Shown piece after piece: positions 1 through 9,000 of a DNA stretch of 64,000 nt. The position numbers are program-made. The DNA is from Escherichia coli. GTDB lineage: Bacteria; Pseudomonadota; Gammaproteobacteria; Enterobacterales; Enterobacteriaceae. The first letter of the stretch is position 1; every line of letters starts with the position of its first letter. The DNA lies in assembly GCF_003018115.1 (NCBI RefSeq), contig NZ_CP027458.1; one strand, written 5' to 3'.

Positions 1-3000
1 GTAGCCCTTGAGCAATACTTAAAAACACTAACGTAATAATCAATAAGTTATTACTTATGAAATCACACTTGTGAATTCATACTGTTTAAGCCCCCTTGCA
101 TACAAGAGATCACATATTGCAGTGGTCTCTTTTTTTACAGAATAAATCACAATTCATAATTATGATTTGTGAATTATGCGTGTCTGTTTTTCAGCATTGT
201 GACCGCATCGGACTCAGGCATCGAAAACTGCACCCGGTGCCGTGCAGCCACATCCAGTGCAAACACCTTCGTGTAGACCTCCGTTGAGCTGATGGACTTA
301 TGCCCCATCAGGCTCTGCAGGACCTTCAGCGGTATACCGGCATACAGCATGTGCATCGCATAGGAATGGCGGAACGTATGTGGTGTGACCGGAACAGAGA
401 ACGTCACTCCGTCAGCAGCAGCGGCGGCAACCGCCTCCCCAATCCAGGTCCTGACCGTTCTGTCCGTCACTTCCCAGATCCTCGCTTTCTCTGTCCTGCC
501 TGTTCGTTTATTACGCCGTTCCATGGGGATTTTCAGTGTTGCCACCATCGTCTGCAGCTGGCTGACGTACCAGGAGTCGGAGAGCGGAACCAGCCGGTGA
601 GTCTGCTGCCCGGCAGGCGTTCTTCCTGCCGTCCTGGCTGCTTTTTCTGTCCGCTGCTTCAGAGTAGCCAGCTGCACAAACGGATACGGAGGCGCGAGCG
701 AAAAATCCCCCCGCGTCAGCGCCAGTGCTTCATTAATGCGCGCACCGGTGTTCCACAGTGTGGCCAGCAGCATCTTGCGGCGCAGATCCGGGACGTAATG
801 GAGCAGGGCACTCACTTCAGGGGCGAGCAGGTATTTTGGCAGTTCATCATGAACCATCGACATCTGGCGGAGTGCCAGAGCAGCCGGATAATCAATGGCA
901 ACAGGCAGCGATGCAGGCTGTCCGGCAGAATACTCTGCCGGTACCATGGCTGCAGACTGGCTGTGTATAACGGAGCCTGACATTTATATTCCCCAGAACA
1001 TCAGGTTAATGGCGTTTTTGATGTCATTTTCGCGGTGGCTGAGATCGGCCACTTCTTCCCCGATAACGGAGACCGGCACACTGGCCATATCGGTGGTCAT
1101 CATGCGCCAGCTTTCATCCCCGACATGCACCACAGGGTAAAGCTCACGGGAGACTTTGTCTGACAGCAGGCGGGCGCTGGCCAGGGGGATCACCATCCGT
1201 CGCCCGGGCGTGTCAATAATGTCACTCTGGACATCCACAAACAGACGATAACGGCTCTCTCTTTTATAGGTGTAAACCTTAAACTGCATTTCACCAGTCC
1301 CTGTTCTCATCGGCAAAAGAGCCGTTCATTTCAATAAACCTGGCGACCTCTGCCATCCCTTCCTGATTTTCAGCCTGCCAGCGTTCAGCACGCAGTCGCC
1401 GGGCTTCGTTCTGCATGGTCGTACTGACCAGACCGGAGATATTCACGTCATACGCCTTGAGCAGCTGATAGCTGTCGCTGTCAACTGTCACTGTAATACG
1501 CTGCTTCATAGCACGCCTCTTTTGACATACTTCTGGTATGCATATCAGTATATATTATTATGATGCAAAAATCAGCGCATTAATACACATACTGTTATCT
1601 GGCTTTTAGTAAGCCTTATTTATTTTACCTTACATTATGTTAACCAATAAAAATTAAAATCAGACTTATAAAAACAAAGCGTAATTATCGAATGACCATT
1701 TCCGGCAGATCCGATTTTTCTGTTATTTACGGGTTTCCGGAAGTGTACCACGCTGAGGAAATCATCATATTGCTGTTTTCCTCCCCTGCGCGGCGCATCA
1801 CAGGTCAGGGAGATGACACAATATATAGTGCCATGAGCAGCTGAACTAAGCACTACATGTTGTGCTTACGGGAGATAGCGCTGTGCGGAGGGAAAGGAAG
1901 ATCCTGAACAGCCGGAAACCGGATCTGTGCGGCAGAGAACGGGCAGGAGATATGATAATTAAGCAGCACACATAAAATCATATCAGATATGATTTTCACC
2001 ATTAAATACAAAACCATATCTGATATTATCAGAAATCAATAACACACAAATCATGCAGGATGTGATTTTTACCTTTAAGAACATTATCAGATGGAGCGTG
2101 CAGGATGGATGAAGAAAGGGTGTTTTCACTCAGCTATGAACAACTAACCCAGTTTGCGGAACGACGCATCCGGGAATGCAATCTGGACAGCCAGGGCGCG
2201 ATTTATCTCTGCGAGTCAGCCAAAGCCGGAGCCGTGCTGATCTTCTGGCATGAACTGGCCATAAATGGCTATGCCTCAATGAATGCCATAAAGAGACAAG
2301 AGCTCATTGACGCCGACGTTCAGCGCCTCAGAAAGCTCATCTGGCCGGAGGATGGCTGGAAATGACTCAGAGCCGCCGACCGTCGCCACTGCAGCGGAGA
2401 GTGCTGATTGTGCTGGCTGCCCTTGATGAAAAACGACCGGGCCCCGTGCTGACGCGGGACATAGAACGGGTGCTGGAGCGAAGCGGGGAAGCCCCGGTCT
2501 ACGGGCCAAACCTGCGCGCCTCCTGCCGTCGTCTGGAGGATGCCGGCTGGCTGCGTACCCTGCGCGCTCCGAACCTGCAGCTGGCAGTAGAGCTGACGGA
2601 GGCCGGCCGGGCTGTGGCACAGCCTCTGCTGCTGGCAGAACAAGACCGCCTCCGGGCAGAACAGCGTGCGGCAGAAGTCGTCGTACTGCCGCTGGTCCCG
2701 GCAGCAGGTCTGCCCGCAGATGGCACTTCTGCCACTGATCTGGAGGTGGAGCTGAACGGCATAACGTATCAGGGCTGCCGTGGGGATTTTGTGGTGCGTC
2801 TCGACGGCAGCACCTGTCTGCAGTTATGGAATAAAGAAGGCAGGGTTGTACGCCGGGAGGGCGATCCGCTGGAAGTGGCGCAGTGGCTGCAGGCCTGTCA
2901 CGATGCAGGAATGGAGGTTCGTGTGCAGGTTAATGAAAGCATCACCCCGTAAAAACATGCCTGCACGGTTTACACATCATCCCATGGTGGCAGCCGGTTA

Positions 3001-6000: not shown

Positions 6001-9000
6001 TTTCTTCAGTCAGTTAGCGGGGCTCTGACACACGATTTGCTGTTTATTCTTTTACTGTCCACAGGCAGGAGGCTTTCTGGAAAACGAAAATTCAGACATC
6101 AAAAAACTGTTCGGCGAGGTGGATAAGTCGTCCGGTGAGCTGGTGACACTGACACCAAACAATAACAACACCGTACAGCCTGTGGCGCTGATGCGTCTGG
6201 GCGTCTTTGTACCGACCCTTAAATCACTGAAGAACAGTAAAAAAAATACTCTGTCACGTACTGATGCCACGGAAGAGCTGACACGTCTTTCCCTGGCCCG
6301 TGCAGAGGGATTCGATAAGGTTGAGATCACCGGCCCCCGCCTGGATATGGATAACGATTTCAAGACCTGGGTGGGGATCATTCATTCCTTTGCCCGCCAT
6401 AACGTGCCTGGTGACAAAGTTGAACTGCCTTTTGTCGAGTTTGCAAAACTGTGTGGTATACCTTCAAGCCAGTCATCCCGCAGGCTGCGTGAGCGCATCA
6501 GCCCTTCCCTGAAGCGCATTGCCGGTACCGTGATTTCGTTTTCCCGTACCGATGATAAGTACACCCGGGAATATATCACCCATCTGGTACAGTCAGCCTA
6601 CTACGATACTGAGCGGGATATTGTGCAGTTACAGGCAGATCCCCGCCTGTTTGAACTGTACCAGTTTGACAGAAAAGTCCTTCTCCAGCTTAAGGCGATT
6701 AATGCCCTGAAGCGACGGGAGTCCGCCCAGGCACTCTACACCTTTATAGAGAGCCTGCCCCGGGATCCGGCTCCGATATCGCTGGCGCGGCTGCGTGCAC
6801 GCCTCAATCTGAAGTCTCCTGTATTTTCCCAGAACCAGACGGTCAGACGGGCAATGGAGCAGTTGCGCGAGATTGGATATCTTGATTACACGGAGATCCA
6901 GCGGGGGCGGACAAAATTCTTCTGTATTCACTACCGGCGTCCCCGGTTAAAAGCGCCGAATGATGAGAGTAAGGAAAATCCGTTGCAACCTTCACCTGCG
7001 GAAAAAGTCAGTCCGGAGATGGCGGAGAAGCTTGCACTGCTTGAAAAACTGGGCATCACTCTGGATGACCTGGAAAAACTCTTCAAATCCCGCTGAACAT
7101 AAACTGTAGTCAGTGAAGAGCGCTCTTTTACTGACTACAGCTTATATTAAAAGGTGCAGTCAGTGGTCTGCTCACTGTAGTTTATATTCAGATTCCTGCT
7201 GTGCACTCTGTAACTGAGCTGCCATCTGCCTGCTCCTTACGTAAGTGACCCCGTAACCTGATGCTGAGGCATTGCTCCCTTCATAAAACATGACTTACTC
7301 ACTACAGCTTATATACCTGCTCCAGCTTATGTTATATCTGTTCTGCTGACCACAGCTTATATAAGGAGAACGATTCGAACAGCAGCGTATACCGGCTTCC
7401 GGGGCCAGCCCTGGGAACTGGCAACGTCTGGCAGATGTGCTCCGGCACATAATGCGGGGCACATCTGCTTCGACAATAGTGGTGAACTGGCAGGTATCAA
7501 GATGACGCCATTTACGATGACGGTGACAGAACCGGCGTTTTCATCGAGAGAAAGAGATTTAACCTGCCCTGGAGCGGTCAGGTTGAGAATATGAACGTAG
7601 AGGGACTTTTCGTCCATGGCGGTGACCTCTGGCAATTAAAACACCATCATCATGCCTTCAGCCACCACAATAAGGGAAGACCATTATGGATACAGCTATT
7701 CTGACCTGAACGCCCGGATCCTTCCACGACAATAAATCGCAGCGCGCGGATCCTTTTATTGTCTTATCCCACATTATTGAGAGTAAAACCAAATTCGTAA
7801 AGGCTCCTTTTCCTGCTCAGATCCTCCATGAAGCCAGTCATGGCACGGGTTGAAGACTGGTTTGCCGTTTTTGGGAGAAATAGGGTAATACCAAGACGCT
7901 AATGATCTATCAATGGATGGATGTAAGTAACAATTGAAAACTGAAAATGCGCTATGTAGATTCTGACAGATTTATGCACCTGAAATACGTTCAAAATCCA
8001 CATAGCGTAACGCTGATTTCCCTTACCAGAAAAAAGAGGGGAATAACCAGTATCTATCCCCCTACACAATTGCAGAATAATAAATTATAAAAATAAAAAC
8101 TCAGGATTTATATACATGATTACATGTGATATTACCGAGAAATATTTTGTGATAAAATCTTTTTGCTGATTATTTTAAATATCTTGATTTCATCATCTGT
8201 AAGGTTACTCCATATTTTTTTTAGATTGCGTCCATATATCCTTGTAATCTTCTGTAAAAACAAATCACCATCTGGAGTCAGGTAAATATTCTTACTACGT
8301 CGATCTTCCTTACTTTCCATACGCCTAATAAAACCAAATTTTTCCAGAGAGTCACAAACTCTGGTGATATTGGTTCTGGAAATATCTAATTTTTCACTGA
8401 GTTCAGTTGGAGATAAGCAAAAATTATCAGCACTGGATAAGAGGGCCAGAACCATAAGTGTTGTATCATTTATACCATCCTCCTTCAGGGATGAATTAAT
8501 ATTATCAGTAAGTTTTTTGGTAACACGCATACAAAGTTGTAAAAGGAGATGCTCCTGAGCTGGATATGATTGCTCATTCTGTTGTTGATAGATAATAACT
8601 TTATCAAGTAATTTAATACTATCCATTCCATTAACTCTTTTTAAAGATAAAAACTGTACCATAGTTTGTTTAAATAACACAGATAATCTTTACAAGATTA
8701 TTTCATGAATATATATCATATAAAAAGCCAATATATTATTTATATACTAACGTTCACGTAAACTTTCATTAATAGTTTCCTTTAATGGGCTAAGAAGATA
8801 GCTGATAACACTACGCACTCCTGTTTTTATTTCTGCCATAACAGTCATTCCAGCTGTAACAGGCATTTTTTTTATTTCCCCCTGAATATCATTCCGATCA
8901 ACAGATATAATCACGTTAAATACAAGTCCTGTATCCGGAACAGAAACAGAATCTGCAGTTATATTTTTTACTTTCCCTGTAAGGTAACCATGACGTGTAT

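Follow-up and report, generated by a model that had tools for sequence, protein, structure and literature searches.

The stretch of Escherichia coli DNA analyzed here, a window of 64,000 nucleotides (nt) from contig NZ_CP027458.1, raises the question of what its F-type maintenance modules amount to, namely whether the ccdAB killer operon with the resolvase gene resD, the RepFIB replicon, a second replicon of the incompatibility group FII (IncFII) family and the srnB killer locus are complete, and how they came to lie on one plasmid. The reading that we favor, with a probability of roughly 0.85, is that they serve an F-like virulence plasmid (ehx, saa, iha, espP) from Shiga toxin-producing E. 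coli (STEC) negative for the locus of enterocyte effacement (LEE) as its backbone for replication and maintenance, and that this backbone consists of textbook modules brought together when F-type and IncI1 DNA recombined. All of the genes and cis-acting sites in question are present, complete and nearly identical to their known counterparts, and these sequences predict that they are active and jointly stabilize the plasmid. Families were assigned with NCBIfam and Pfam for proteins and Rfam for RNAs at curated cutoffs or gathering scores, and the reference plasmids were F (NC_002483), R100, ColIb-P9 (NC_002122) and pO157 (CP018242), the last compared in the FIB region only. The named genes are full length, pass their curated family cutoffs and share 82–99% amino acid (aa) identity with the F or R100 orthologs. 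An earlier note on this DNA had listed ccdAB–resD, RepFIB with iterons, a repA2/repA1 replicon and srnB, and all of them lie at or near the positions it gave. None of the replication genes is truncated (truncation had been set beforehand as the refuting observation), the cis-acting sites are present as well, and both replicons and both killer loci appear intact as far as sequence can tell.

With respect to RepFIB, window positions 5576–7367 align with F 38162–36372 at 95.6% identity. The iterons are concentrated within this replicon: an 18-nt consensus, with five or fewer mismatches allowed, matches 10 times in 5863–7360 and four times in the other ~62 kb, and the 9-mer iteron core occurs 32 times in the window where 14.5 ± 4 would be expected, a count reached in 0 of 100 shuffles. 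Read from its annotated GTG, the Rep protein has 325 aa and is 98.8% identical to F Rep; CTG 6077, which is in phase with GTG 6119, opens an unbroken frame of 339 codons and gives a protein of 339 aa. Rep has been reported to start at CTG, with the FIB replicon of F defective through a single-nucleotide polymorphism (SNP) in the rep ribosome-binding site (RBS) and that of pO157, which has a GGAGG RBS, replication-proficient (Lloyd et al. 2025, PMC11983097). In a three-way alignment the window reads CAGGAGGCTTTCTG at this site, the same as pO157, where F has CAGAAGG. On this alignment RepFIB is complete and has the functional RBS allele rather than the defective F allele, and because the RBS is of the functional pO157 type, the comparison suggests that the FIB replicon is competent here, unlike in F.

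Like the other mechanisms considered below, the working of RepFIB has been established in reference systems and would carry over to the window by virtue of near-identity. RepFIB would be an iteron-controlled theta replicon, with Rep translated from the CTG behind the GGAGG RBS. Rep bound to the upstream iterons beside the DnaA box would, together with DnaA, fire the FIB origin, and the downstream iterons would keep copy number down by handcuffing. The match to F and pO157 ceases at ~7369, right after the last iteron, in agreement with the value of 7370 at which the earlier note had ended the module cluster. The int gene found 3′ of RepFIB in both F and pO157 is missing from the window. It is replaced at 7369–7684 by ~317 bp of unrelated sequence that includes a 92-aa open reading frame (ORF; 7357–7635) without a family match, and homology to F picks up again at 7684–7896. 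In all relatives rep is annotated from GTG 6119 rather than from the experimentally supported CTG 6077, a systematic mis-annotation that Lloyd et al. (2025) also note.

The second replicon is set in a gene order, finO–nuc–srnB–repA2–CopA–tap–repA1–oriR from 49.8 to 44.2 kb on the minus strand, that is the classical F/R100 backbone and agrees with F until the Tn1000 disruption just after tap in that plasmid. Colinearity with R100 spans PrepA2 to past oriR, with RepA1, tap, CopA, CopB and the oriR/DnaA box all in order. Specifically, RepA1 is 94.4% identical to R100 RepA1 at the aa level, Tap matches R100 at 24 of 24 residues and F at 22 of 24, and identity to R100 is 90.4% in CIS, 95.6% over the 228 bp after the DnaA box and 90.3% further on. 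In terms of incompatibility type, the name IncFII used in the earlier note holds at the family level but fails in its strict sense (R100/R1 specificity), for which the CopA/CopT sequence, and the loop above all, has to be identical to that of R100. CopA is 88% identical to its R100 counterpart and has a loop unlike those of both R100 and F RepFIC, while the CopB protein shares 82% identity with CopB of F RepFIC and 46% with that of R100 (the copB gene itself matches R100 at only 56% of nt). Because CopB is RepFIC-like and the CopA loop differs from those of R100 and F, the second replicon, by sequence comparison, belongs to the IncFII family, is of RepFIC-like lineage, has a CopA allele of its own and is not a strict IncFII replicon; it would effectively represent the intact counterpart of the transposon-disrupted RepFIC of F. 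Here the cis-acting RepA1 would initiate replication at oriR, CopB would repress the repA promoter, and the CopA antisense RNA would block translation of tap and hence of repA1.

Close relatives of the window are typed IncFIC by PLSDB/MOB-suite; for fine typing of F replicons, MOB-suite labels from PLSDB were set aside, as R100 is labeled IncFIA and an unexplained IncK2/Z label occurs. Beyond the FII-type oriR, positions 44192–44565 are 89% identical to ColIb-P9 1959–2331, just downstream of the IncI1 repZ gene, and the same sequence is found in R100. This similarity might underlie the odd IncK2/Z label of the relatives.

Of the two killer loci, srnB encodes a toxin identical to F SrnB at 48 of 49 aa (98%), and homology to F reaches ~174 bp upstream of its start codon. 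SrnB would be a membrane toxin of the hok family, with a stable mRNA that a short-lived antisense RNA keeps in check, and would kill plasmid-free segregants. The ccd pair is equally well preserved: CcdB matches F at 100 of 101 aa and CcdA at 71 of 72 (98.6%), both equivalog models are covered end to end, and a single nt separates the ccdA stop from the ccdB start in a full-length adjacent pair that forms one operon. In segregants lacking the plasmid, labile CcdA would decay and CcdB would poison gyrase. ResD is 95.9% identical to F ResD with its C-terminal catalytic region aligned (the 3′ part of resD is also 96% identical in nt to ColIb-P9 resD), and it would resolve dimers at an rfsF-type site. 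The multiple replicons and killing systems, by which the earlier note explained stable carriage, might contribute to it.

The larger surroundings of ccdAB–resD are those of RepFIA. In F, RepFIA extends over nt 45922–52516 and comprises three regions, the first with the rfsF sites, oriV-1, ccdAB and resD, the second with repE, oriV-2 and incC, and the third with sopABC (pEC958 paper, PMC4398462). Window positions 189–1904 align with F 47660–45944 at 91.9%, including ~390 bp upstream of ccdA; the window itself begins 173 nt beyond resD, and the repE, oriS (oriV-2) iterons, incC and sopABC of RepFIA are absent from it. Because F homology ends at F 47660, before repE, ccdAB–resD is, by this alignment, RepFIA region 1 only, an initiator-less remnant rather than an independent F module. 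In CP024291, the closest complete F-type relative, the annotation of ~70 of 112 kb contains no repE, and just outside the span of the window resD is adjoined by a ParA-like gene, accompanied by a small one, and by a pair of ParM/ParR type. At 188–189, in the last codons of resD, the window ceases to match F, ColIb-P9 and the pO113-type (IncI-backbone) plasmids alike, and ResD C-termini differ by lineage, which points to a second recurrent breakpoint at this other edge of the module.

At the inner edge of the remnant, where F homology stops on the ccdA side, lies a 28-bp site, AGATCCG-N14-AGGATCT, that we regard as a hybrid of two rfsF-type sites. Its F counterpart, AGATCCG-N14-CGGATCT, occupies F 45922–45949, and 45922 is the first base given for the rfsF-containing RepFIA region in PMC4398462. 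ColIb-P9 has a site like that of F at 15610 (site B) and a variant at 12051 (site A). The left flank, left arm and spacer at 1899–1926 are those of site A, the right arm and right flank are those of site B and F, and three independent homology blocks (F 45944, ColIb-P9 15632 and ColIb-P9 12075) end within 3 bp of one another, at window 1902–1904. Paired rfsF-type sites flank variable cargo both in F (41090–41117 and 45922–45949, around the pif region) and in ColIb-P9 (12051–12078 and 15610–15637, around 3.5 kb), and the window has a single, hybrid one. The sequence at 1899–1926 is thus what would be expected of recombination between two rfsF-type sites, an event that, relative to ColIb-P9, would have removed the 3.5 kb between its sites. 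Both IncI1 and IncR plasmids have been reported to switch gene sets at rfsF; the mechanism is therefore a known one, of which the window site would be a clean new example. We tentatively propose, at somewhat less than even odds, that the hybrid site is a fossil of ResD-mediated exchange and that ResD/rfsF, besides resolving dimers, is a cassette-exchange and plasmid-fusion system common to IncF and IncI1 backbones. An imperfect palindrome at 1817–1864 was also considered as a candidate rfsF and dropped, given that 1899–1926 coincides with the three breakpoints and with F 45922.

The 3.7 kb that separates ccd from RepFIB stands where F has its 7.8-kb pif interval and is made up of IncI1, colicin and tra fragments. 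Positions 1902–3432 are 93.7% identical in nt to ColIb-P9 12075–10544. The earlier picture of a cluster of F-type modules therefore holds for the F-type genes themselves, but neither for this ColIb-P9-type IncI1 segment nor, as described above, for ccdAB–resD as a module in its own right. Closer to RepFIB, an orphan traT shares 95.8% of its nt and 233 of 243 aa with the traT of the tra operon (59457–60188), which lies 55 kb away on the same strand; together with the traG fragment it looks like the remnant of a second F-type transfer region, and homologous deletion could occur between the two traT copies.

The ccd–FIB–ehx block is 98.5% identical over 188–9000 in ~160-kb plasmids typed in PLSDB as IncFIB plus IncI-gamma/K1 with an MPF_I label, and the FIB replicon is 100% identical in them; these plasmids have no FII-family label, a statement about the label only, as the FII replicon was not searched for directly. 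The FII–srnB–finO–tra half is found in a 54.5-kb record (linear and possibly incomplete), with no FIB in the 31.8-kb stretch examined. Taken together, a composite origin involving IncI1-type as well as F-type DNA is well supported by these sequences, because of the hybrid site, the ColIb-P9-type DNA, YdeA, the orphan traT with the traG fragment, and the occurrence elsewhere of the FIB/ccd half without an FII-family label. This bears out the cointegrate or mosaic origin advanced in the earlier note on the points of the hybrid site, the tra remnants and the IncI-typed plasmids. On this view F-type and IncI1 (ColIb-type) plasmids would have recombined to produce the cluster, with an rfsF-type site used at least once.

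Several observations weigh against an active, jointly acting backbone assembled in this way. An intact replicon need not be an active one, since the RepFIB of pCG86 is intact yet inactive beside an active RepFII, and pEC958 replicates from RepFII only (PMC4398462); the FIB of F is itself crippled by the single SNP already mentioned (PMC11983097). The srnB toxin falls short of the cutoffs set for the NCBIfam Hok models, the window has no partition locus and is therefore by itself without a full stability kit (the par loci of the closest relative lie just past the left end of the window), and the rfsF label of 1899–1926 derives from coordinates and breakpoints, with one mismatch to the F site in the right arm. 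Some of these points lend themselves to the reading that a single replicon, most likely the FII-family one, drives replication while the other, though intact, is carried along silently or in reserve and can drift freely. Such a model has been proposed for cointegrate F plasmids, RepFII alone was essential in pEC958 by transposon-directed insertion-site sequencing (TraDIS), as RepFII alone was active in pCG86 (PMC4398462), and the FIB of F is nearly inactive. The FIB of the window, however, has the functional pO157-type RBS and all of its iterons, and its 100% identical copy is the sole F-type replicon label in the pO113-type IncFIB plus IncI-gamma/K1 plasmids, where it is probably under selection somewhere in the lineage. 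We regard replication from one replicon as a real possibility, if a somewhat doubtful one.

A related view would treat the juxtaposition of ccd–resD and RepFIB as historical debris, a RepFIA leftover in ancestral F order with the pif region swapped. Order and orientation are indeed colinear with F, from the int-side flank through RepFIB to rfsF–oriV1–ccdAB–resD, the pif interval has given way to the IncI1/colicin/tra fragments, and repE and sopABC are absent. This view is nonetheless rather unlikely, as ccdA, ccdB and resD are intact and 96–99% conserved, contrary to what decay would lead one to expect, and ccdA is essential by TraDIS in pEC958, a related plasmid, meaning that ccdB is active there (PMC4398462). 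The junction itself might have arisen by ordinary homologous or illegitimate recombination rather than by ResD at rfsF, with the inverted-repeat motif a coincidence; short stretches of similarity in the flanks could have supported homologous exchange, and the accessible text of the papers searched contains no printed rfsF sequence against which the motif could be matched. We nevertheless consider this quite unlikely, given that the switch from A-type to B/F-type sequence lies within a motif of 28 bp whose 7-bp arms are inverted and which starts at the exact counterpart of F 45922, that the three homology blocks end so close together, and that gene sets are known to switch at rfsF in IncI1 and IncR plasmids. 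Our preferred reading remains that of a backbone of textbook modules joined from F-type and IncI1 DNA.

In terms of its meaning, this arrangement is already-known biology and ordinary for F-like plasmids. Among the large plasmids of Enterobacteriaceae, no type is more common than the F-like one with multiple replicons and several addiction systems. What the window adds, modestly, is the hybrid rfsF-type junction, which is resolved to the base pair and would provide an account at that level of how IncI1-type and F-type maintenance DNA became joined in pO113 and LEE-negative STEC plasmids. The main value lies in annotation and typing, with FIB, an FIC/FII-family allele, no RepFIA and at least two addiction systems. 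Curing with pCURE-type cassettes would need both replicons to be blocked and ccd and srnB to be neutralized, and probably also a third hok locus that lies beyond the window.

The window as a whole is part of a large, F-like, pO113-related virulence plasmid of the LEE-negative STEC family, and the annotation of relatives assigns to it ehxCABD, a YadA-like adhesin gene, espP, saa, iha and an F-type tra operon. Its nearest PLSDB records (CP073590, CP024291 and CP129265) are 99.4–99.7% identical over parts of the window only, and none of the PLSDB records reached 100% identity over any whole query. A search through the annotation of close relatives for further toxin–antitoxin, partition or replication genes across the rest of the window turned up only CcdAB and Hok/Gef. 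By the annotation of the relative CP027453, an L-lactate permease gene and a lutABC-type lactate-utilization operon lie at ~22.8–27.3 kb of the window, between the YadA-like adhesin gene and espP. Three Rfam matches above the gathering score, at 48295–48437, 53369–53445 and 62757–62842, belong to the AS-pc02, AS-traI and AS-traG antisense RNA families of F-like plasmids.

Within the IncI1-type segment, ydeA is GC-rich (~65%) and its product has neither a Pfam nor an NCBIfam family; searches of PHROGs and PADLOC for a maintenance or defense function of the ydfA-like gene and ydeA returned only an unknown-function PHROG and a sub-threshold JetA match. The two genes are translationally coupled, and upstream of them, at 1948–2069, lie the perfect or near-perfect palindromes AAAATCATATC/GATATGATTTT and repeats of ATATCAGATATGAT. 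The palindromes look like operator sites for an uncharacterized DNA-binding protein. Further along, an E1-type immunity gene and the coding sequence for the C-terminal 106 aa of a pore-forming colicin converge, in the cib/imm position of ColIb-P9 and of a different colicin type.

Coordinates of the replication, maintenance and intervening features in the window.
Feature	Position	Strand	Details
resD	174..983	-	269 aa; tyrosine site-specific recombinase (multimer resolvase); Pfam Phage_integrase, 66.6 bits
ccdB	984..1289	-	gyrase-poisoning toxin, 101 aa; NCBIfam equivalog NF010262, 214 bits (cutoff 147)
ccdA	1291..1509	-	antitoxin, 72 aa; NCBIfam equivalog NF010264, 162.9 bits (cutoff 100)
ccd promoter and oriV-1-homologous region (RepFIA region 1)	1510..1898	-	colinear with F 46339-45950, ~80-94%
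Hybrid rfsF-type site	1899..1926	-	AGATCCG-N14-AGGATCT; candidate ResD target, putative recombination scar
IncI1 ColIb-P9-type segment	1927..3432	+	ydfA-like, ydeA and DUF6404 genes
ydfA-like gene	2105-2365	+	within the IncI1-type segment
ydeA	2362-2952	+	196 aa; homologs named YdeA
DUF6404 gene	2970-3317	-	DUF6404, 123.6 bits
Colicin immunity gene	3475-3780	+	Pfam Microcin (colicin E1 immunity), 28.6 bits
Colicin pore-forming-domain fragment	3787-4107	-	Pfam Colicin, 89.6 bits; profile positions 91-184 of 185 only
Orphan traT	4217-4948	-	intact; TraT equivalog, 515.6 bits; BLAST match to F traT
traG 3′ fragment	5340-5550	-	BLAST match to F traG
RepFIB replicon	5576..7369	+	DnaA box, upstream iterons, RBS, rep, downstream iterons
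DnaA box, RepFIB	5743-5751		perfect match
Upstream iterons, RepFIB	5863-5966		conserved in F and pO157
rep RBS	6067-6072	+	AGGAGG; functional pO157-type allele
rep	CTG 6077 (annotated GTG 6119) to 7096	+	Pfam Rep3_N
Downstream iterons, RepFIB	7099-7360		conserved in F and pO157
CIS and oriR region	44192..45043	-	colinear with R100
DnaA box, oriR	44859-44867		within the CIS/oriR region
repA1	45044..45901	-	initiator, 285 aa, GTG start; NCBIfam TIGR03474 incFII_RepA, 582.6 bits (cutoff 446.9)
tap (repA6)	45894..45968	-	24-aa leader peptide; annotated tap in relatives
CopA antisense RNA gene	45986..46075	+	Rfam RF00042, 98 bits (gathering score 60), full model
repA2/copB	46203..46460	-	transcriptional repressor, 85 aa; NF010256, 122 bits (cutoff 87)
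srnB locus	46744..47067	-	hok/sok-family type I toxin-antitoxin; colinear with F 2751-3075
srnB toxin ORF	46744-46893	-	Pfam HOK_GEF, 36.3 bits, above cutoff
srnB mRNA leader and antisense-target region	46883-47038	-	Rfam sok RF01794, 93.1 bits (gathering score 59)

Among known systems, F has the same genes in the same order and orientation, with CcdA, CcdB, ResD, FIB Rep and SrnB at 96–99% and CopB at 82% aa identity. The window differs from it in lacking repE/oriS/incC/sopABC, pif and the FIB-adjacent int, and whereas F has a weak FIB RBS and an FII-family replicon cut by Tn1000 right after tap, the window has a strong RBS and an intact replicon. Plasmid pO157, a target of published anti-F curing cassettes, is likewise a virulence plasmid with both FIB and FII-family replicons and has the same GGAGG RBS, CTG context and iteron layout; its FIB homology starts later (window 5702) and runs on into int.

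The R100/R1 IncFII basic replicon has the identical architecture repA2–copA–tap–repA1–oriR, with hha and a DUF2726 gene upstream of the replicon in R100 where the window has srnB. A different incompatibility specificity from R100 is expected from these sequences, because CopA is 88% identical and has a different loop. ColIb-P9, finally, shares the rfsF-side region at 85%, resD at 96% and the AGATCCG-N14 motif with the window. It has no ccdAB and another gene upstream of its resD, the 3.5 kb between its two sites are absent from the window, and it has an intact colicin Ib gene with imm where the window has a different, truncated colicin/immunity pair.

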